From the NCBI GenBank assembly GCA_965205595.1, contig CBDBHI010000028.1, positions 10,903-74,902 of the forward strand: 64,000 nt of DNA, written 5' to 3'. This document shows, piece after piece, positions 44,139 to 53,608 of the stretch (its first letter is position 1; the number at the start of each line of letters is the position of its first letter). The notes beneath the pieces are model-generated. The model was not told where the DNA came from, did not search any database, and worked only from the letters and a program-made list of their open reading frames with translations. Position numbers and translations under genes: made by a program. The DNA is from Bryobacterales bacterium. Its GTDB lineage: Bacteria > Acidobacteriota > Terriglobia > Bryobacterales > UBA6623.

Positions 44139-45063
44139 TTATAGAGCTTCATCCCAAGCTTGAAGCTGTTTAATAGTGACGCCTGACCCGCCACAGACGA
44201 TGACCAAAACGTTGCCTTTGTCGACTAGAATATCGAGCGCTTGATAAATTGGCACGAGCGAAGCACTGCAAGCCGGTTCAACTAAGAGTCGATGGTGGAG
44301 GGCGAAGGACAGGCAAGCGTCTACCGCCTGACGGTCAGTGACAATATGGTTTATAACCCGATGGCTATGGCAATAATCATAGGCTTTCAGGGCAACTTGT
44401 TTGGCTCCAAGCGTAGTGGCTACGGTGGTGATGGCTGGCAACGTTACCAACTGACCCGCCTTAACCGAAGCAGCGAGCGACGCTGCCCCTTCGGTCTCAA
44501 CGGCAATCACCGGTACATCAGCCAAATCGTTGCGGCGTAGCCCGTCGACGACCCCCACACAACAACCCACCGCCCCCGACCGAGACAACAATCGCATCTG
44601 GCACAAGGCCACTCTGTGCGACCTCATCAATCATCGTCGCGTGACCCGCCCACACCAGCGGATCATCAAATGGGTGAAGACAGGCGTCGTGCGCTTCAGT
44701 GATTTGTTGGGCGTACTCATGTGACTCTTTCCAGCTATTGCCATTAACGATGACCCTAGCTTCTTCTTGCTCCAATACTTCAACCGATCGGGGCGATACT
44801 GTTTCTGGCACCACGACGACCGTTCGTACGCCCAATTTTCGACCCGCATAGGCGACAGCAATACCTGCGTTACCGCCAGAGGCGATGATGAAGCGCTTAG
44901 CACCGTCAGACACGTGCTTCTGACAGGCGTGCCCCAGACCTCGCAACTTGAACGACCCAGAGGGCTGTAGGGCATCCATTTTCAACCAAACCCGGCCTGC
45001 TACCAATTGAGACAGTGGCTGTGATTCGATCAAGGGTGTTTCGATGTGTAAAGGCTGCTTCAT
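44139..45063 (-). pseudogene. PLP-dependent serine/threonine dehydratase with +1 frameshift
   Basis: QPSGSFKLRG, SGGNAG, VGGGGLLCG; extra G in run at 44552-44556 shifts to the VVDGL...VEPAC...VCGG frame. Confidence 0.85.
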
Positions 45064-45366
45064 TTCGAGTTGTTGACGAGTTGCTAGGGTACCGGAGCCT
45101 GGAAGTGGGGGCCGATCATGTTGGCCGATTCTATCGCTCTTCGACACGGCGCGATCGGTTCCAGGTCGTAGTCCGCCAAACTGGGGTCTCGGTAGTTTGG
45201 GCCGGCTTTCGAGATTGGGGCAGCGCTGGAAGTGGAGCACCGCAATGCGGGTGGCTTTCGCGAGCCGGACATGAACGAAGCCTGACGGCAGACGCTTCGC
45301 GTGGTGGCAAGCGAGGTGAAGACGGGAAGGCGGGCGTAAGGTCGTGGACACCAAAGGAGGTGTCCC

Positions 45367-46251
45367 ATGACACGTTTACGCCGGCAGATGCTCGACGAGC
45401 TCGAGCGTCGCAATTACTCCGCGAACACGATTCGCTGCTACATCCGCGCAGTCGAAGAGTTCGCGCGCTACTTCAAGCGGCCGCCCGATCAGTTGGGTCT
45501 GGAAGAGATCCGCAAGCATCAAGCTCATCTGTTTCGTGATCGCAAGCTCGCCGCCAACACCGTGGCTCAACATCTGGCGGGGCTGCGGTTCTTCTACGTC
45601 AAGACGCTCGGACAAGCGTGGAATTTGACGTACACGCCCTATCCCAAGAGACCCCGAAGCTTGCCGAGCATCCTTTCTGTCGAAGAGGTCGCCCATCTGA
45701 TCGATGCAGCCGACAGCATGTTCCACCGCATGATCGTGATGACGCTCTACGCCACCGGCGTGCGTCGGGCGGAGCTGACTCAGCTCCAACTCAACGACAT
45801 CGACTCTGAACGCATGGTGGTTCATGTTCGCGGCGGCAAGGGCCGCAAAGACCGCGATGTGATGCTCAGTCCAGAGTTGCTCGTCGCATTACGCGAGCAC
45901 GTTCGGGGGCTGCGGCGCAAGCCGAAACAGTGGCTGTTTCCGGGAGGGAAGTGGCACAACAGCGACGATCCGATCAGCACCAAAGCGGTCTGGAACGCTT
46001 GCCACGCAGCCGCCCGGCGGGCCGGCATCGATAAACCCGTTCATCCCCACACTTTGCGTCATTGTTTCGCCACGCACTTGCTCGAAGCCGGGGCGGACTT
46101 GCGTACCATCCAGATGCTGCTCGGGCATCGCGACCTGGAGCAGACGGCGGTCTATCTGCACTTGTCGGCGCGTCACTTCAGCGCCGTCGCGAGTCCGCTG
46201 GACGCCTTGCAGTTAGCTTCAGCGGCACAACAAGATCCCGGGACAACGTAG
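45367..46251 (+). CDS. Tyrosine recombinase (integron-integrase-like N-terminus)
   Basis: RRNYSANTIRCY, TGVRRAE, GKGRKDR, HTLRHCFATHLLE, LGH...TAVY; AGGAGG RBS. Confidence 0.95.
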   Translation: MTRLRRQMLDELERRNYSANTIRCYIRAVEEFARYFKRPPDQLGLEEIRKHQAHLFRDRKLAANTVAQHLAGLRFFYVKTLGQAWNLTYTPYPKRPRSLPSILSVEEVAHLIDAADSMFHRMIVMTLYATGVRRAELTQLQLNDIDSERMVVHVRGGKGRKDRDVMLSPELLVALREHVRGLRRKPKQWLFPGGKWHNSDDPISTKAVWNACHAAARRAGIDKPVHPHTLRHCFATHLLEAGADLRTIQMLLGHRDLEQTAVYLHLSARHFSAVASPLDALQLASAAQQDPGTT

Positions 46252-47439
46252 ATGCAACGGCCGCCGCTGGAGGTGGCCGATCTGGTTCGCGCCGCGGGAC
46301 AAAGCTTCTTCGTCAGAACTCGCGGCTGGCTTCGCGGACAGCACGTCAAAGTGTTGTCAGCAATCGCACGCTGCCGCACCGCCGCGCTGGGCGGTCATCG
46401 CGATAAGTGCGACGACTGCGGCCATGAACCGCCCATCTCCTACAACTCGTGCCGCGATCGGCATTGTCCGAAGTGTCAAGCCAACACGCGCAAGCGGTGG
46501 CTTGAGGCTCGCCGCAGCGAACTGCTGCCGGTGCGCTACCTGCACGTCGTGTTCACCTTGCCGCACCTGCTCTCCCAGTTCGCCTTGCAGAACAAAAAGG
46601 TGATCTACTCGCTGTTGCTGCGCACGAGCGCCCAGACGCTGCGCCAAGTTGCTCGCGATCCCAAGCACCTTGGCGCCGAGATCGGCTTCTTCTCGATTCT
46701 GCATACCTGGAACCAGAGAGTCCAAGAACACGCCCATGTCCACTCGGTGGTCCCCGCCGGCGGTCTCGCGCTCGATCAGGACCGTTGGATCGATGCCCCC
46801 TCCAAGACTTTCTTCCTTCCCAAGGACATCTTGGCTGAAGTCTTTCGCGGCAAGTTCGTCGAAGGGTTGCGCAAGGCCTTCGCCAAAGGCGAGCTGCGTT
46901 TCCACGGGCGCTTTGCGCCGCTATCTCAACCACGCGCCTTCAAGTCTTTCGTGCGCACGCTGTACCGCACCAAGTGGGTGGTCGAAGTGCGACCGCCCTT
47001 CGGAGGTCCCGGGCAAGCTCTCGAGTATCTGAGCCGCTACACCCACCGTGTGGCGATCTCGAATCAGCGCCTGGTCTCGTTCGAGCAGGGCCAAGTCACC
47101 TTCCGTTGGCGCGATTCCGCCAACGGCAATCAACAACGGCTGATGACGCTCGCGCTCGATGAGTTCCTGCGTCGCTTCCTGCTGCACGTGTTGCCGAGCC
47201 GCTTTGTGCGCATTCGCTACTACGGCTTCCTGGCTCACCGCAAGCGCGCTGCTCTGTTGCCGCTGTGTCGCCGCCTGATCGCTCGCGTCAATCCGTCGCG
47301 CATGATCTCCTACGGCGCTCACGAACCCACTCATACCTTCTGGGGCTGTCCTCGCTGCGGCGGCCGCTTGCGCGTCGTCGAACGCTTCAGCGCAGCGGAA
47401 CTGTGCGCTCGTGCTCCACCCGTTCTCGCCGCCGCATGA
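46252..47439 (+). CDS. IS91-family rolling-circle (Y2/HUH) transposase
   Basis: Zn region CRT..CDDC..SCRDRHCPKCQ, HVVFTLP, HTW...HAHVH, YLSRYTHR. Confidence 0.95.
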   Translation: MQRPPLEVADLVRAAGQSFFVRTRGWLRGQHVKVLSAIARCRTAALGGHRDKCDDCGHEPPISYNSCRDRHCPKCQANTRKRWLEARRSELLPVRYLHVVFTLPHLLSQFALQNKKVIYSLLLRTSAQTLRQVARDPKHLGAEIGFFSILHTWNQRVQEHAHVHSVVPAGGLALDQDRWIDAPSKTFFLPKDILAEVFRGKFVEGLRKAFAKGELRFHGRFAPLSQPRAFKSFVRTLYRTKWVVEVRPPFGGPGQALEYLSRYTHRVAISNQRLVSFEQGQVTFRWRDSANGNQQRLMTLALDEFLRRFLLHVLPSRFVRIRYYGFLAHRKRAALLPLCRRLIARVNPSRMISYGAHEPTHTFWGCPRCGGRLRVVERFSAAELCARAPPVLAAA

Positions 47440-47865
47440 TGCTACTCCTCATCACAGCCCGGGATTCTTGGTCGCTTCGGCGTGAGCCGCGCTCGTGCGC
47501 CTCGGCTAGCTTCGCCCCCCTATGCGCCTCGTTTCGACCGCCTTCCCCACAGCGAAACCTTTGGCCGCGCCCCGCGATCACAACTCCAACTCGCTTAGCC
47601 GTGTCGCTGAACCGCCCTCGGACGCCGTTTCGACTCTCTTCAGCGCCTCTCGCTCGCAACATTCAAAACGCATAGACTGCAAACACCGGCGGGGGCTTCC
47701 TTCATGTCGTTGTATCGCAAGCGGTTAGCTCTCTCGTACTGCGAGACCTCTATGTGCGCCGCTCGCGATACAACACTCAGACATGTCGGAAGTGTCCGGC
47801 AGGCCCTCTGGAGCTTCGTCTTGACCGCGAGCCGTTGCGGCCCGCATCTCACGTAGCATGAATGC

Positions 47866-48879
47866 ATGCCAAAGGTGACTCTCTACGGAGCCGCTCTTCT
47901 GATTGCTGGGACGTGCAGCGCCGAGTCACGGATCGGAGGAATCGAGTTCTTCGGGTATGGCGGCCTTGACGTTGGGGAGATCCGTAGCGCTCTGCCTCTG
48001 AACGAAGGCACTCCTTGGGTCGAGGAGAACCGGCGCGTCCTTCGGGAGTTCGTAAAGGTCTCTTTAGGTACCGACGCCACGGACATCGCGGCTGTCTGCT
48101 GCGATGAAGGCGGCGATCGCTGGGTATATATCGGGCTCCACGGCGGCACCAGTAAGACTATCCGCTTCCTCGACGAGCCCGCGGGGGCCCTGCGTCTTCC
48201 TCAAGAGCTACTTCAGATCAGCGCGAGGCTCGAAGGCGCGCTGCGCGCAGCGGTCGAGCGTGGCGGCGATGCGATCCAGGAAGACAGGTCTCGCGGTTAT
48301 GCACTTACGAATAATCCAAGCGCGCGATCTGTAGAGCTGGAAATGAGGGAGTACGCTCTTGGGCGCGCTCCGCAGATATTCGCCGTGTTGGCCGACTCCT
48401 CCGACGCGCAACATCGAGCGATCGCTGCCGAGGCAGCCGGGTATGCCGAACACACAGCAACGCAGGTACACGTGCTTTCCAGGGCGACTCGCGATCCTAA
48501 CAGGACCGTTCGAAACAACGCCATCCGGGCTCTCGCGGTTTTGGCTGGCTCGGACATCGGGTTGGCCGTGCCCATAGAAGCATCTCTATTCATAGAGCTG
48601 CTCTCGTCAGGCAGTTGGGAGGACCGCAACAAGTCCGTTGCCGTTCTCCTCTCGCTGACGCAATCCCGGGATATACGACTACTGTCGGAGATCAAGGAGC
48701 GGTCTCTGAATGCGTTGGTTGAATCCGCGCGCTGGCGTTGGATTGGTCACTCTTACGGGGCAAGGGTCATTCTAGGCAGGATCGCTGCGCTCGAAGAGAG
48801 CGTGATCGTTGACGATGCTTCAACTTCCGACTTCGTGGATGCCGTTCTGAGCCGCATTCGGAAATCCCGAACCCCCTAG
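47866..48879 (+). CDS. Secreted HEAT-repeat-like protein
   Basis: Signal peptide; DPNRTVRNNAIRAL, WEDRNK helical repeats. Confidence 0.75.
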   Translation: MPKVTLYGAALLIAGTCSAESRIGGIEFFGYGGLDVGEIRSALPLNEGTPWVEENRRVLREFVKVSLGTDATDIAAVCCDEGGDRWVYIGLHGGTSKTIRFLDEPAGALRLPQELLQISARLEGALRAAVERGGDAIQEDRSRGYALTNNPSARSVELEMREYALGRAPQIFAVLADSSDAQHRAIAAEAAGYAEHTATQVHVLSRATRDPNRTVRNNAIRALAVLAGSDIGLAVPIEASLFIELLSSGSWEDRNKSVAVLLSLTQSRDIRLLSEIKERSLNALVESARWRWIGHSYGARVILGRIAALEESVIVDDASTSDFVDAVLSRIRKSRTP

Positions 48880-49131
48880 GCTGGCTCAGGCGCTAGGCAG
48901 CGCAGATCGATGGTCGGGGAAGCACACTTCCGCGGATGGGGATCGTCGGACCTGTAGACACTGCTAACTACCAAAAAGTTCCCGAGCCTACCCTAGCTTC
49001 GCCAGTGGGGCTCGAAGGACTGAGACGTCTGCTGTGCGGTTGGCTCCGCGAGCCGGACTCGCCGCAAGCGAGTCGCCGGCATCTTAGTAAGGGCTCGAAG
49101 CCACCGACTCTAGCCGGATCGAAGAGCCTAT

Positions 49132-50331
49132 GTGCCCGGCGACGCTATGATCGATCCAAAGGCGTTGAGCACGAAAGGAATGTCTGAGGGCAACGAGAGT
49201 TCTGAACAGGATGTCCGCGTTAAAACCCTGTGCGACGATATCGAGCAAATTTACGATTCCGGTGACCGCTATCCGAAGATCACCGTTAACAGGCACTGGT
49301 CGAACCACAACCCCACGATCTCTGGAGAGATTGCTAGACCCAAAGCATTTCGATGGTATCTGGAACGCGAGCTGCTTGCGTTAGCTCGCAAGGGCGCGCA
49401 AATTGAGGTCGAGCCGTCGCGACAACGGATCAGCCTAAATTCTCCCGAGCTGCTCCAGAAGATCGACGAAAGTTCGTTCGATCTAACTCGGAAGAAGCTG
49501 TTCTTATTCGGGCCCGAACGCGTAGACCTATCTATTGAGCGCCTTGAGCACTACACCTCGACCGAGGCGCATCACTTTCAGCGCTTCATCCTGCTAACGA
49601 ACTACCAGATGCATATGGACGCGTTTGAGCGCTTGTATCCAAGTTGCGTCAAGCCTGGCCGGCAGGGCGCCCAAATGCCCGCCTATCATCAAGCCCTGCC
49701 TGACAACGCCGGGCTCAGTATCGTCAATATCGGCGTCGGCCCGTCCAACGCAAAGACCTTCACCGATCACGTCGCCGTTCTGCGCCCCGATGCGATGCTC
49801 ATGATCGGCCATTGCGCGGGCGTGCGCAACCACCAAGAGATAGGCGATTTCGTATTGGCCTCCGGCTACATGCGGGCGGATCGCATCCTCGACGCGGCGC
49901 TTCCCCTGAGTGTCCCTGTCGCACCGAACTTTCTTCTCAACAAGCATCTGGCGCGGGTGTTGGATGAGCGTGGACAGCGTTATCGAATCGGAACGGTGTA
50001 CACCACCGTCGATCGGAACTGGGAACTGTTCTGGCGCGACTCACTCGCAAACTTACGATCAAGCCGCAGCATCGCCGTGGACATGGAATCGGGGACAGTG
50101 GCAGCCAACGGATTCCGCTACCGTGTCCCGAACGCGACACTGCTTTGCGTTTCCGACAAGCCGCTGCACGGCCAGCCGAAGCTTCCCGGGGACGCCAAGC
50201 GATTCTACGAAGAGTCCAAGAACCAGCATCTGGCGATAGCAATCGACGCGCTGGAGAGTGCACGGGACGACTATCCCGGCGGATTTCCGAATACAGAGCT
50301 GCGAGCACCGAACGATCCGCTAATTCGCTGA
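49132..50331 (+). CDS. amn: AMP nucleosidase (start uncertain)
   Basis: RVDLSIERLEHYT, FILLTNY, QMPAYH, NIGVGPSNAKT, MIGHCAG, DMES, VSDKPLHG. Confidence 0.9.
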   Translation: MPGDAMIDPKALSTKGMSEGNESSEQDVRVKTLCDDIEQIYDSGDRYPKITVNRHWSNHNPTISGEIARPKAFRWYLERELLALARKGAQIEVEPSRQRISLNSPELLQKIDESSFDLTRKKLFLFGPERVDLSIERLEHYTSTEAHHFQRFILLTNYQMHMDAFERLYPSCVKPGRQGAQMPAYHQALPDNAGLSIVNIGVGPSNAKTFTDHVAVLRPDAMLMIGHCAGVRNHQEIGDFVLASGYMRADRILDAALPLSVPVAPNFLLNKHLARVLDERGQRYRIGTVYTTVDRNWELFWRDSLANLRSSRSIAVDMESGTVAANGFRYRVPNATLLCVSDKPLHGQPKLPGDAKRFYEESKNQHLAIAIDALESARDDYPGGFPNTELRAPNDPLIR

Positions 50332-50414
50332 TTGACGCAGCAACTCGTGACGTTGGCGCCGCGAGTCGGAGTCGCCGCAAGTATTGTCGGAGCGATTATC
50401 GTTGGACGCAACGC

Positions 50415-52044
50415 GATTTGAACCTAACCGCTACGCGGTGGGTGGCAGCGAAGCTGTGCAGGGCAAGCCAAGCAGTGGTGGTCGGCTTGGCTGAGTCAAG
50501 AAGAATCCGTCATCATCAACGGCATCTGTCATCAAGCATCAGTCGAGCAGGATACGGGGCGTCAGCAACGGCCGACGCTGGCCGCGGTGGTGCGAGCCTA
50601 TGGGGAGGAGTATCTCGGACAGACTCCGACTTCGGTTCAACAGCGCCGTGCCCTGACAGACATCGCAGCGTGCCGCACGCCGGCGCTAGGCGGCCACGTC
50701 TACGAGTGCGACGAATGCGGTCAGCGTAAGACCAGCGGCAACCCCTGCGGCAACCGGCACTGTCCGCAATGCCAAGGCGCGGCGCGAGCACAGTGGCTCG
50801 AGAAGCGGTTACTCGATCTGCTGCCGGTGGTCTACTTCCACGTCGTGTTCACACTGCCACATCTACTGGGTCCGTTAGCGCTGCAGAATCCGCGCGTCGT
50901 CTACGGCATCCTGTTTCGCGCCGTCGCCGAGACTTTGCTCGAGCTGGGCGAGACTCGACGAGCGGCTCGTTTCGGCTTCCTGGCCGTGTTGCATACGTGG
51001 GGGCAAAGCGTCGAGCATCACGCGCACCTACACACGGTAGTTCCCTCCGGCGGCATCGCCCTGGACGATTCGCGTTGGGTGCGTTTGAAGGGCAAGCGCT
51101 TCTTCCTGCCGGCGCGGGTGTTGCGTCATCTCTTTCGAGCGAAGGTCCTCGACTACTTGCGGCAAGCCTTCCTCGGCGGCGAACTCGAGTTTCACGGTCG
51201 CATCGAGCATTTGGCGGATGAGGGCGAGTTCCGATGCCTGCTAGCGGCGACCAAGCGCAAAGCTTGGGTAGTACATGCCAAGCCCCCCTTCGGCGGACCG
51301 CAGACGGCGTTGGGCTACCTGGCGCGCTACACCCACCGCGTGGCGATCTCCAACGAACGGCTGCTCTCGATCAAAGATGGTCGCGTGTGCTTCGCCTACA
51401 AGGACTACTCCCAGCAAAGTCGACCACGCGAGATGACGCTCGACGCCAACGAGTTCCTGCGACGCTATCTGCTGCACGTCTTGCCGCGGGGTTTCGTGCG
51501 CATTCGCTATTACGGGTTCCTAGCCAACTGCCATCGTCGCCAAAAGCTGGCGCGGGCTCGCGAGTTGCTGGCGACTCCCGCACCTGAAGCAACCCCCCCG
51601 AACGGCGCCCGCGTCCTGGTCCACCGCTGTCGACGTTGCGGTCGGGGACGCATGCTGTTAGTCGCAACCTTCGACGCGGAGCTACCCGCGACGGTGATTG
51701 TCTTCGACAGCTCTTAGCGCCATGTCCTCAACCACGCCTCTCGTCGTTCGTGACTGGCCCGTCGTAGGCGCGCCAAAGCTGTGTCCGGCACGCTCATTCG
51801 AGCTTCTTCGGCCTTTCCAACAAGGTCCAGATTGGCCTCAGATCCCCGCAAAAGTGCCGCAACGGCGAGAGTCCAAGATCTTGAACAGACTCTTTGCCGC
51901 TCCCCCGAGAGCACCCCAGACAATAGAAACCCCTAAGCCCGTTCGGCTCCGCGGTTAGCTTCAAATCGTTGTACCGCTTGCGACAACTTTCCCGTTTGGC
52001 CACGCTCCTCCTGTCACGTCGCCAGCGGTACAACACTCAGATTT
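50415..52044 (+). mobile_element. IS91-like element 2, lacking the recombinase gene
   Basis: Direct repeat GATTT at 50415-50419 and 52040-52044; same end architecture as element 1. Confidence 0.78.
50587..51717 (+). CDS. IS91-family Y2/HUH transposase (homology begins about 50566)
   Basis: CRTPALGG, CDEC, CGNRHCPQCQ, HTW...HAHLH, YLARYTHR. Confidence 0.92.
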   Translation: MVRAYGEEYLGQTPTSVQQRRALTDIAACRTPALGGHVYECDECGQRKTSGNPCGNRHCPQCQGAARAQWLEKRLLDLLPVVYFHVVFTLPHLLGPLALQNPRVVYGILFRAVAETLLELGETRRAARFGFLAVLHTWGQSVEHHAHLHTVVPSGGIALDDSRWVRLKGKRFFLPARVLRHLFRAKVLDYLRQAFLGGELEFHGRIEHLADEGEFRCLLAATKRKAWVVHAKPPFGGPQTALGYLARYTHRVAISNERLLSIKDGRVCFAYKDYSQQSRPREMTLDANEFLRRYLLHVLPRGFVRIRYYGFLANCHRRQKLARARELLATPAPEATPPNGARVLVHRCRRCGRGRMLLVATFDAELPATVIVFDSS

Positions 52045-53608
52045 AGCGAAAGCCTCTATGTCGTTTGTTTCGATCCAGATACGGCTAGCCATCGCAAGAA
52101 CCAATCATTGGATGTTGACGGCGACTGGATTGGCAGCGACGCCATCAAACACGAACTTAACTTCGACTTCGCCTCGTCCTGCGAGCGATGGGGGGAGCGG
52201 ACCGACAACGGCCTGGTCCAAACCGTCAAACTGACCCTGCGCCACCGCGCCCAAGACGGGTACATTGACCCCTCCGACCGTGGCGGACACCGATGAGTGA
52301 AAGCGGAAGCCTGTTCCGAAAATGCTAAGGAACACTTGGTCCTCCCCGGGGTTCAAGGCGACCGGAAGATTTTGCCTCGGGACCGACACTGTGCTGAAGG
52401 TGAACCCTTCCGTCCGTGCTCCGTCCGCCGCGACACGTAGGTATGTCGCCGCCGCCGGCCCCATTCCGCTTGCGTTGGCTGAGAAGAGTCCAGGAGCGAC
52501 GGCCTCGATTCGTACACCAGCGGTGGCACGGCCGTCGCTAGTAACTTCGACTAGCGCGTCGCCCGCCGCGGTTCCCTTTGGGATAAGAAAGTTGAGCTGA
52601 CTCGGCGCGACAAACTGCAACCGAGCCGGACGCCACGTCCCTGTACTGTCACGGACCGAGACGCTAGTTCCGCCAAGTGATGTCGGGAGTCCGCCGACGG
52701 CCACGACGAGGCTGTCCGCCAGATTTTCTCCAAAGAGGGTCACCCACATTTCGGGTGCAATCCGATCGCTCGTGAAACTAGCGGCGCTGACGACTCCAGT
52801 GGTGGTGAATCTAGGTGCTGGCGTAATCGGCACAGCTTCAACGGCCATGCCAACTACGGGCAAGACGACCTCGGCGACATTCGGATCGCTGCTGCGAATA
52901 GTGAGTGCGGTTTCAAACCTTCCCACTGATTCGGGAGCGAACGAAACTTGAACGAATCCGTTCTCACCCGGACCGATACTGAGGTCGCTCGCGCCAGCTT
53001 GAGTAGAGAACGCGGCTGCTCCAGCTAAGCTCCACTCAACCTCTAGGTCAACGAGGCTGGGGTTCGCAATCTTCAACGACTGGCTAGGCATCGATCCTAC
53101 CGTCACCGCCTCGAAGAAAACGATCTCGCTCTCGATGAGCATCCGGGGTGTCTGCCCGTCAGTTCCAGTGCCTTCAATAGTCACCGCCGATTCAGGCTGG
53201 TCGGTATCGTTGGTTCTAACCGTGAGATTCGCGGTCTGCACGCCCTCGGCTGACGGCTGGAACCGAATGGAAACGTTGCGGCTATCACCGGAGATGATTA
53301 CCAGCGGAAAGTTTCTCGTTAAGACTTCGAACTGATCCGAATCACTTGCGACAGACGTGACGTCGAGAGGTCCACTACCGGTGTTCTGGAGCGCGACCGA
53401 GCCAACAACGATCTGACCGACCACCGCTTCGCCAAGATTCACCGGAGTCTCGCTGACGGCAAGGTGCGGCTGCTGAACCACGTTGACCGGGCCAACTTCC
53501 GCCTCGGTACGGTGAAAGCCGTCGCTGCCTGTGACGCGGAATCTTACCTCCGAACCGCCGCGAATCTCAGATGGGTCGAAGCGAATCTCGGTCGCATCAA
53601 GGCCGGTG

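Follow-up and report, generated by a model that had tools for sequence, protein, structure and literature searches.

Concerning the mechanics of transposition in the IS91 family of insertion sequences, little is known, and only four of its members have been shown to transpose (review part of PMC13181058). For IS91 itself, a circle of single-stranded DNA (ssDNA) derived from the bottom strand is the functional intermediate (available part of PMC13181058). In IS608, pairing of a guide with the cleavage and target motif is established (available parts of PMC3201880 and PMC5934647), and two cases in which folded ssDNA is recombined, CTX phages and integrons, are cited in the accessible part of PMC9345347. 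Furthermore, the tyrosine recombinases "found in IS91 and IS3 transposons" are assigned to an integron-like subgroup devoid of the insertion typical of IntI (available part of the preprint 10.1101/542381). Here, two elements of the IS91 family are compared with these systems. Both are situated in a stretch of 64,000 nucleotides (nt) from the genome of a Bryobacterales bacterium (GenBank assembly GCA_965205595.1, contig CBDBHI010000028.1, positions 10,903 to 74,902 of the forward strand), which is called the window in the following and to which all coordinates refer unless a contig is named. Element 1 is an autonomous element with a tyrosine recombinase (integrase) gene, 2512 bp in length (45268-47779, plus strand), and element 2 is a derivative of 1625 bp without integrase (50415-52039, plus strand). 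As judged from the sequences of their relatives, the folded design of their ends is a feature of a whole clade; this design seems to set the sites at which the elements are cut and inserted, and it may be linked to the integron-like recombinase.

The left end of element 1, GACATGAAcGAAGCC (45268-45282), begins with the pentanucleotide GACAT (45268-45272), a putative crossover and target motif, and the terminal 15 to 17 nt (terIS tail, 45268-45284) are complementary to a guide at the other end of the element. The left end also contains a small subterminal terIS hairpin with the core GCC-TGAC-GGC (45276-45294), found by DNA folding, the equivalent of which covaries in relatives. At the right end, the guide, i.e., the subterminal right inverted repeat (47692-47708; its part in the outer stem is GGCTTCcTTCATGTC, 47694-47708), lies directly 5' of the foot of the oriIS hairpin (47709-47774), which has arms of 16 bp, a loop of 34 nt, and a TATC motif; its arms (47709-47724 and 47759-47774) match over 16 nt at 94% in the repeat search, and it covaries in 44 right ends. 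The element ends with a spacer of 5 nt, ACTCA (bottom strand TGAGT; 47775-47779), after which GACAT recurs in the flank (47780-47784) inside a near-palindrome resembling a repetitive extragenic palindromic (REP) sequence. This right-flank motif was recognized from the flanks of three GACAT-type insertions and from uninterrupted look-alike sites elsewhere in the genome.

Element 2 is built in the same way. Its left pentanucleotide GATTT and terIS tail (50415-50431) are accompanied by a small hairpin ACCGC-TAC-GCGGT (50427-50439, DNA fold), and its guide (51951-51967) is followed by an oriIS hairpin with arms of 17 bp and a loop of 33 nt (51968-52034; also seen in the alignment of right ends), the spacer ACTCA (52035-52039), and the right-flank pentanucleotide GATTT (52040-52044). 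In the repeat search, the outer arms (50414-50431 and 51951-51968) match over 18 nt and the inner arms (51968-51984 and 52018-52034) over 17 nt, both at 94%. All stems, the ACTCA, and the repeated 5 to 6 nt are thus situated where an initial annotation of the window, made from the letters alone, had placed them (sequence 44800-52500). The duplicated core which it had given as GATTT stands; GACATG, read at 47780-47785, is better taken as the 5 nt GACAT.

When the ends of each element were joined in silico and folded with DNA energy parameters, the outer stem, the bulge of 5 nt, and the inner stem proposed in that annotation were recovered at both junctions. The junction of element 1 reached -30.6 kcal/mol for the top strand and -34.0 kcal/mol for the bottom strand, that of element 2 -29.0 and -35.8 kcal/mol, respectively, as compared to means of -11 to -15 kcal/mol in 200 dinucleotide shuffles (z = -7.1 to -8.0). 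The bottom strand folds 3 to 7 kcal/mol more stably than the top strand in both cases.

A covariation analysis of joined ends, as had been suggested, shows left end, guide, and flank to vary together far above shuffled expectation. Among 39 unique pairs of guide and left end, 7.77 of the eight positions next to the hairpin foot are Watson-Crick pairs, whereas shuffled partners reach a mean of 4.91 and a maximum of 5.72 (2000 shuffles); position 1 is C:G in 19 and G:C in 19 of the pairs, and all four types occur at position 2. Between the guide and the pentanucleotide of the right flank, 4.59 of the five positions are paired (2.78 if shuffled, at most 3.46), and across the clade the final 5 nt of the guide are the pairing partner of the left pentanucleotide. 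The classes of guide and motif found are AAGTC/GACTT, AAACG/CGTTT, TAACG/CGTTA, TGACG/CGTCA, AAACC/GGTTT, AAATC/GATTT, ATATC/GATAT, and ATGTC/GACAT. For 44 right ends in their integrated form, RNAalifold returns on the bottom strand an outer helix of 5 bp, an unpaired spacer, and an inner helix of 16 bp, with compensatory double changes in 19 of the 21 pairs. In this consensus, 97.6% of the cells are paired, as compared to 76.6% after shuffling (0 of 500 shuffles reach the observed value) and to 31-43% if partners are slid by one to three columns. The spacer itself is variable: the ACTCA bulge, noted as identical in both elements, is one variant among several of 5 nt in the clade, which include ACTAG, ACTAA, CCTAA, and GCTAA, but all 44 aligned right ends have the same central CT (AG on the bottom strand).

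Concerning the strand on which these structures act, the mismatches are informative. Counted on the top strand of unique stems, A.C exceeds G.T by 42 to 3 in the inner and by 26 to 2 in the outer stems; read on the bottom strand, such A.C mismatches are G.T. If each class of position and type is counted only once, the ratio is still 10 to 2 plus 11 to 2, i.e., 21 to 4 (binomial p = 0.0009). The other common mismatches of the top strand, C.C and C.T, correspond to G.G and G.A on the bottom strand. This asymmetry, the mark expected of selection for a bottom-strand fold, points to the bottom strand as the one that folds, and not to the top strand, as which the structure had first been written; the same asymmetry would also be expected from cytosine deamination of an exposed bottom strand, pairing then being retained. 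Since the outer stem exhibits the bias as well, left end and guide must meet on one single strand, be it displaced ssDNA or a circle. From the sequence comparisons, a functional fold of the bottom strand that joins both ends is thus regarded as very probable. The C-C mismatch that had been pointed out in the outer stems of both elements is found in 19 of the 39 unique pairs, 18 having a Watson-Crick pair at this place, and was rejected as a universal recognition feature.

The relatives stem from a scan with an alignment of three transposases, which yielded 80 loci, mostly in metagenome-assembled genomes of Acidobacteriota, with some in Proteobacteria and others. The pairing of a recombinase gene with an IS91-type gene, on which the first reading had built, is the rule among them: in 78 of the 80 loci an integrase gene lies directly upstream of tnpA, its stop codon mostly at +1 from the tnpA start or in a 4-nt overlap with it, and of the two loci without an integrase match one possesses just 220 nt of upstream sequence. 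The left ends of relatives are found around 970 to 990 nt before tnpA, which equals the space needed by the integrase, and their small hairpin, GCCGC-N3-4-GCGGC with covarying variants, starts around 12 nt from the end. A scorable hairpin is situated 200 to 470 nt 3' of tnpA in 71 of the 80 loci (250 to 330 nt in most). With a filter of at least three contiguous pairs between guide and flank plus a 5-nt spacer, 48 distinct right ends were retained. Clostridial and other relatives at around 40% identity likewise possess an integrase and a hairpin followed by ACTCA, and integrase-transposase pairs are annotated in RefSeq on plasmids of Paraburkholderia and Sphingomonas. On the Paraburkholderia plasmid pBN3 (3960-4010), an integrase-IS91 pair is accompanied by a left end and a guide-like repeat, GCGGTTTAG, after which no hairpin is visible; this right end is possibly truncated or differently built.

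The proteins place the elements firmly in the IS91 family. The transposase gene of element 1 (46252-47439, plus strand, 395 amino acids) encodes a Y2 HUH transposase with matches to PF04986 (4.7e-60), PF14319, and the IS91 equivalog model NF033538 (411.5 bits, cut-off 125); that of element 2 (50587-51717, plus strand, 376 amino acids from a GTG start) is 49% identical to it and matches PF04986 (3.2e-61), PF14319, and NF033538 (396 bits), in line with the IS91-type identity originally assumed for both. Identity to IS91 and IS1294 copies is around 23-28%. In the transposase alignment, H160, H162, H164, Y259, and Y263 are invariant; in our reading, the histidines form the HUH motif and the tyrosines the catalytic pair. 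The tyrosine recombinase of element 1 (45367-46251, plus strand, 294 amino acids) is integron-like or Xer-like, and its stop codon abuts the tnpA start (TAG ATG). It matches PF00589 (1.9e-40) and PF13495; N-terminally, a SAM-like core-binding domain is present but no further domain for arm binding. Among solved structures, its best relatives are the archaeal XerA-type protein 4a8e (2.3e-40), IntI4 (2a3v, 2e-35), XerA, and XerD. The NCBIfam models of XerA and of integron integrases both score around 210 bits and below their cut-offs; TIGR02249 (integron integrase) reaches 210.5 against 265, in two stretches, and NF011946 146.7 against 435. Among 69 integrase open reading frames of at least 250 amino acids from the related loci, the catalytic residues are kept almost throughout (R133 in 69, H228 in 67, R231 in 67, H254 in 68, and Y263 in 67), which argues that the integrase is maintained as an enzyme and not merely as a DNA-binding regulator. 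As far as sequence can tell, the catalytic residues of both enzymes are intact, and the identity of the elements as integrase-linked members of the IS91 family is practically certain.

The limits of the elements follow from their copies. The genome of the window (7.35 Mb in 92 contigs) contains 17 transposase matches and around 20 right ends with the TACAAC-ACTCA motif; identical copies in other flanks are found on contig C4 for element 1 and on contig C38 for element 2, and the similarity of copies ends just before the left and just after the right pentanucleotide. In the contigs of public sequencing runs, one contig stops at 45265 and another restarts at 47756, and the logic of tandem junctions agrees with these limits of element 1. 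An orthologous empty site was not found in 40 related genomes searched with each left flank, because for one flank the coding part is conserved but the intergenic site is not. A paralogue of the intergenic repeat of element 2 is uninterrupted, however (C67:140339-140380), and holds a single GATAT at the matching place. A degenerate junction pattern had seven matches in species-representative genomes, five of them true junctions, of which three are head-to-tail dimers of integrase gene and tnpA with one shared pentanucleotide situated between the spacer and the left end; a further tandem junction is locus L064. The outer stem, which had been thought to exist in full only in the excised circle, is hence also present as double-stranded DNA in such chromosomal tandems. 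From the limits of similarity and the single motif in the empty site and in tandems, two readings of the mobile unit are equivalent: it starts with the left pentanucleotide and ends with the spacer, or it starts directly behind the left pentanucleotide and ends with the right one. An empty site carries one pentanucleotide and an occupied site two.

Concerning copy numbers and reduced forms, several further observations were made. In public run X1, the summed contig depth is around 55-60 over element 1 and 18-21 in both flanks (44900-48200), which exceeds what two identical copies, as present in the assembly, would yield; additional copies or extrachromosomal forms are possible, contig depth not being equivalent to copy number. 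Five gene-less miniatures of around 290 bp occur in the genome of the window (C4:170253-170526, C15:1742-2020, C30:389238-389520, C50:4130-4412, and C57:7526-7810), all sharing left end, guide, and hairpin, with ACTCA or ACTCG as the spacer; four of them have CGTTT on the left and GGTTT on the right, and the one on C4 is of the GACAT type. At C26:52901-52973 of the same genome, a solitary palindromic hairpin is flanked by the spacer on both sides (TGAGT...ACTCA) and by one pentanucleotide-like motif per flank, and has neither guide nor genes; it might have been left by two right ends in inverted orientation, or be a palindromic element of minimal size. A complete genome of 6.4 Mb, G045, contains 46 transposase matches, among them three same-strand pairs exactly 2506 nt apart (tandem dimers); for an element of the IS91 family, such an expansion is unusually large. 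In another complete genome, G041 (8.6 Mb), the AAA+ part of the DnaA model has over 100 weak matches, which share identical scores and resemble a very high-copy family of IS21-type helper ATPases (IstB-like).

The expansion in G045 allows the pentanucleotides of closely related copies to be compared. Right and left ends were compared for 45 of the 46 copies, 33 of which form one near-identical family (guide ...CAAACG, spacer CTAAG) with three variable columns in 150 nt of the right body and none in 95 nt of the left body (30 copies). Despite this uniformity, the left pentanucleotide deviates from CGTTT in 10 of 30 copies and at any of its five positions (TGTTT and CGTTA twice each; GGTTT, TGTCT, CGTCT, CGCTT, and two length variants once each). 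The right pentanucleotide deviates in 10 of 33 copies (CGTTA in five, CGTCT in three, CGCTC in two), solely at positions 3 to 5; its first two bases never vary. Variants are present in both single-nucleotide polymorphism lineages of the family, all variant classes of the right side (CGTTA, CGTCT, CGCTN) are found on the left too, and in 15 of 30 copies the left motif is not the same as the right one. In G041, left ends with AACAT for GACAT and CATTT for GATTT were found. For IS91, the available part of PMC13181058 gives the terIS site CTCG in all 43 + 68 sequenced events, with varied targets. A scheme as in IS91, with the left motif inherited and the right one taken from the target, does not predict a variable left motif, whereas a second crossover position would fit it. 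The mirror image of this scheme does not fit the family either. For these 33 copies, the idea that one of the two pentanucleotides is purely inherited was therefore rejected, and so was a true target duplication of 5 bp, as left and right differ in half of the copies.

The targets share the pentanucleotide and often the context of a hairpin loop. The GACAT-type insertions are situated in a repeated near-palindrome of which uninterrupted look-alikes exist, at least one miniature, that on C30, splits the loop of a hairpin with a 10-bp stem, and many insertions in G045, between ...ACGG and ...GGGGA, occupy the loop formed by a CCCCA/TGGGG stem. At position 6 of the flank, the complement of the guide is apparently not enriched (by eye, no statistic), and three flanks extend the match to 8-10 nt. 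In the window, a repeated intergenic sequence, GTTGGC.CCGCGAG.CGGA.TCGCCGCAAG, adjoins both elements and is found once between them (45250-45270, 49034-49068, and 50347-50381); element 1 is situated inside a related near-palindrome, similar uninterrupted sites being present on contigs C6, C26, C67, and C87. This sequence looks like a REP-type repeat targeted by the elements.

These observations can be combined into a cycle with two enzymes. The left end would act as terIS, composed of the 5-nt motif, a conserved linker of around 7 nt, and the small hairpin, and the right end as oriIS, composed of a guide of 12-17 nt, a hairpin of 16-26 bp with a loop of around 34 nt, and the terminal 5-nt spacer, with the motif repeated in the flank. 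Pairing would take place on the bottom strand (antisense to tnpA), between the guide and the flanking pentanucleotide in the integrated copy, and between the guide and the whole terIS tail in displaced ssDNA or in a circle. Both pairings would place the point of cutting and joining at the boundary between helix and 5-nt bulge, beside the hairpin; since this holds either way, the pentanucleotide would represent a short overlap at which crossover takes place; it would be read by pairing with the guide of the element, together with which it would change between lineages. In a first step, the HUH transposase would nick the bottom strand just 3' of the complement of the pentanucleotide at ori and ter and roll out a single-stranded circle as IS91 does, the circle carrying the left pentanucleotide of the parent. 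In a second step, insertion would take place by crossover at the inner side of the target pentanucleotide; a new copy would thereby acquire its left pentanucleotide from the target, whereas its right one would descend from the left end of the parent. This second crossover would have the polarity of a tyrosine recombinase on the bottom strand, with a cut between the conserved arm of 11-12 bp of the outer stem and an overlap of 5-6 nt, the swapped strand being tested against the guide. If parents with a left motif that mismatches the guide beside the HUH nick had no progeny, the invariance of the first two bases of the right motif would be explained.

The initial annotation had proposed much the same combination of an HUH-made circle and recombinase-mediated insertion. 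It is in accordance with the operon-like gene order, the covariation, the selection on one strand, the conserved catalytic residues, and the variability of the motif, crossover on both sides of the pentanucleotide fitting this variability and thereby leaving room for a role of the integrase; the mobility of copies without integrase counts against it. The assignment of cuts to the two enzymes, the formation of a circle, and the action of the integrase on the folded junction would all have to hold. The cycle as a whole, roll-out by the HUH enzyme and insertion by the recombinase, is tentatively preferred by a narrow margin over its rivals, on the strength of the pentanucleotide statistics and the conserved catalytic residues, with doubt slightly outweighing belief. 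In its most specific form, a bottom-strand circle made by the HUH enzyme, joined ends folded like attC, and the integron-like recombinase of the element pasting them into reprogrammable 5-nt targets read by the guide, it is possible rather than probable.

Several observations weigh against this cycle. Concerning the need for an integrase in cis, element 2 lacks the gene, with only around 170 nt between its left end and tnpA, so that the recombinase at first expected in both systems is present in element 1 alone; yet element 2 has two 100% identical copies with identical ends in different flanks. A relative without integrase, 91% identical and situated in another genome, has its left end 175 nt before tnpA, and its guide, left end, and flank have changed jointly and in a compensatory way (ATATC/GATAT). 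Within the genome of the window, no integrase-encoding element with ends like those of element 2 was seen; a third, degenerate copy of the lineage retains a remnant of the integrase C-terminus, which indicates that this lineage lost the gene. Furthermore, four copies with 97.7-99.4% identity share one frameshift of the integrase. Both genomes that harbour integrase-less copies possess intact integrases of other elements, and the enzyme may be supplied in trans, perhaps in a structure-specific manner as for IntI. From the sequences, it appears dispensable at least in cis, which is part of the evidence against a strict need for it. The frameshift, found in the copies on C13, C18, C20, and C51, is the same insertion of 1 nt (CTTCTTC-TA to CTTCTTCTTG) and splits the frame at around codon 78; it may represent a spread inactive gene or a programmed frameshift.

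Other points concern the junction, the targets, and the motif. No circle junction (back-joint), for which a search of sequencing reads had been recommended, was detected in the contigs of the public runs X1, X12, X18, and X20, four of 24 runs that all consist of contigs. Around 5 nt and the hairpin-loop context are all that targets have in common, which is little for a sequence-specific recombinase. The orientation of insertions relative to the replichores is unbiased in three complete genomes (44 versus 37, p = 0.5; co-oriented copies 15 of 21, 20 of 46, and 9 of 14), as based on a rough definition of replichores with the origin at dnaA and the terminus assumed opposite. The statistics of the pentanucleotides are indirect evidence and come mainly from one family in one genome, and in two insertions one rare variant (CGCT; CGTTTT) is present left as well as right, in the manner of a duplication. 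The left CGTTT and right GGTTT shared by miniatures fit one inherited side and one target side better than an alternation, unless a single master is assumed.

In an alternative cycle, the HUH transposase would act alone, as in IS91, nicking ori and ter on the bottom strand, closing the circle, and inserting it, with guide pairing merely presenting the cleavage sites in a way similar to IS608 and the integrase having another job: it might resolve tandem copies or double-stranded circles, or modulate accuracy as Orf121 does in IS91. The ends resemble those of canonical members (a TATC-containing ori hairpin and a terIS hairpin), and IS91, IS801, and IS1294 move by means of TnpA with a bottom-strand circle and a 4-nt target beside oriIS (available part of PMC13181058). 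Element 2 and the relative that also lacks the integrase either move or are maintained, with compensatory changes in the guide, copies with frameshifted integrase have spread, the left end of the miniatures is constant, and the right pentanucleotide is constrained at just those two bases that lie beside the proposed HUH nick. Tandem copies, too, are an expected by-product, because each insertion regenerates the target beside oriIS. However, an inherited left pentanucleotide is then predicted, whereas one third of the left motifs in the G045 family (10 of 30) vary next to 95 invariant nt. Neither the retention of the integrase with intact catalytic residues in 78 of 80 loci nor the fact that long ter-ori pairing including the cleavage motif was unseen in two canonical integrase-less copies is explained. 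Transposition by the HUH enzyme alone is therefore a serious possibility without being a probable one.

The variable pentanucleotides would also follow from double-strand transposition driven by the integrase, with staggered cuts around the pentanucleotide as in the coupling sequences of Tn916-type elements and the HUH enzyme only replicating the circle. Such a mechanism would produce the variation found at the two ends, with a single side affected in most copies and both sides in a few; the conserved catalytic residues of the integrase and the double-stranded junctions present in tandem copies would suit it as well. The bias of both stems towards G.T on the bottom strand is not needed by it, however, and the integrase lacks an arm-binding N-terminal domain. 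Moreover, copies without integrase move, miniatures exhibit the same left and right arrangement, and in the transposase both tyrosines and the zinc domain are retained, as is typical of IS91 members that transpose, such that this mechanism is considered improbable.

If the terminal complementarity merely represented inverted repeats bound as duplex DNA by one protein, as is the usual role of such repeats at transposon ends, folding would be irrelevant and the covariation of left end and guide would arise too. Duplex binding does not predict the asymmetry of A.C, C.C, and C.T mismatches on the top strand; in addition, hairpin and spacer separate the right-hand repeat from the end of the element, and the pentanucleotide in the flank, outside the element, also matches the guide. 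This explanation is very improbable. Least credible is a reading of the structure as RNA, i.e., as a non-coding transcript in the sense of the bottom strand by analogy with the bridge RNA of IS110, for although G.U-tolerant covariation would be the same in RNA and ssDNA and a non-coding stretch of around 250-330 nt follows tnpA, Rfam holds no family for it (best matches 23 bits versus a gathering threshold of 91, and 22.3 versus 49.4), a promoter scan returned nothing at the right ends (promoters and terminators, 45100-52200: one promoter match, 50395-50422 on the minus strand, overlapping the left end of element 2; counts not above shuffle expectation), the full outer stem requires both ends in one molecule, the folded guide is fully paired to the end of its own element and not free, and the IS91 precedent is ssDNA.

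Despite their general similarity to IS91, IS801, and IS1294, the elements exhibit several differences from them. Shared features are a transposase with Y2_Tnp and zinc domains above the NCBIfam cut-off for IS91, an oriIS hairpin 3' of tnpA and a terIS hairpin upstream (as far as structure is concerned), and a short specific motif beside oriIS without an ordinary target duplication. By eye, the terIS hairpin resembles the GCAGCC-TGAC-GGCTGC palindrome near the left ends of IS1294 and IS91 copies, and the TATC(G) motif of the ori hairpin resembles CCTATC/CCTATAC at their right ends. As in IS91, the stop codon of the upstream open reading frame meets the tnpA start, which in IS91 is the case for orf121 (available part of PMC13181058), and the bias towards the bottom strand matches the functional bottom-strand circle of that element. 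The upstream frame is here, in contrast, a tyrosine recombinase that appears catalytically intact from its residues, and the left end is complementary over 12-17 nt, including the cleavage motif, to a guide by the ori hairpin. In an IS1294 copy, the sole inverted repeat between the ends is 10 nt long and does not contain the cleavage tetranucleotide, and an IS91 copy has none of at least 10 nt; long ter-ori pairing including the cut site therefore sets the clade apart, as judged from these two canonical copies. Whereas CTCG is constant in IS91, the motif is 5 nt long, changes with the guide, and is variable at the left end. The elements thus differ from the studied IS91 members in four respects, an integron-like recombinase gene, a guide for both tail and target, a guide-linked 5-nt motif, and variability of the motif at both ends.

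Concerning the IS200/IS605 family, the proposed pairing of the cleavage and target motif with a guide at the foot of a subterminal hairpin would correspond to that in IS608. The transposases are larger, however, with Y2 and zinc domain and 376-395 amino acids instead of Y1 and about 130-150, one guide would serve both the flank motif and the tail of 12-17 nt via ordinary Watson-Crick helices, no replication-related bias in orientation is found, and a recombinase gene is present. With the Tn916 type, in which coupling sequences vary at both ends between copies, the elements share short flanking sequences that vary between copies at both ends and need not match; they differ in having no arm-binding integrase domain, no conjugation genes, a tiny size, and strong evidence of single-strand folding. 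In CTX phages, a folded ssDNA site is integrated and replication completes the event. The same logic, rolling-circle ssDNA from an HUH enzyme and a tyrosine recombinase that integrates a folded site, is proposed here, but CTX borrows the host XerCD and targets dif, whereas the recombinase of the present elements is encoded by an insertion sequence of 1.6-2.5 kb that would use many 5-nt targets in hairpin loops. In a search of full-text literature, no published description of these ends, of the covariation of guide and pentanucleotide, or of the strand-specific wobble bias was found, the scope of the search lying outside subscription journals, ISfinder/TnPedia, and supplementary files.

If guide pairing sets the sites of cutting and insertion, the clade would constitute a second class of HUH transposons with DNA-guided, changeable target choice, and if the recombinase acts on the folded junction, it would offer a simple system for the origin of folded-ssDNA recombination, perhaps that of integrons. 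With the latter, the elements have in common an integrase of the integron-like subgroup (available part of 10.1101/542381), with IntI4 among its best solved relatives, and a proposed substrate that is an imperfect ssDNA hairpin of the bottom strand with an unpaired spacer between helices. There are differences as well: the integrase is devoid of the IntI-specific insertion, no RYYYAAC/GTTRRRY boxes were seen at the feet of the stems (by eye), neither attI nor Pc was seen in the window nor a cassette array in 45000-52300, tnpA following directly after the integrase gene, and the hairpin is formed from two transposon ends, with an HUH transposase as partner gene. Should the cycle with two enzymes and single-stranded DNA be true, this clade would be the closest among the free-living relatives of the IntI/attC reaction, and it would offer a plausible model of how that reaction arose.

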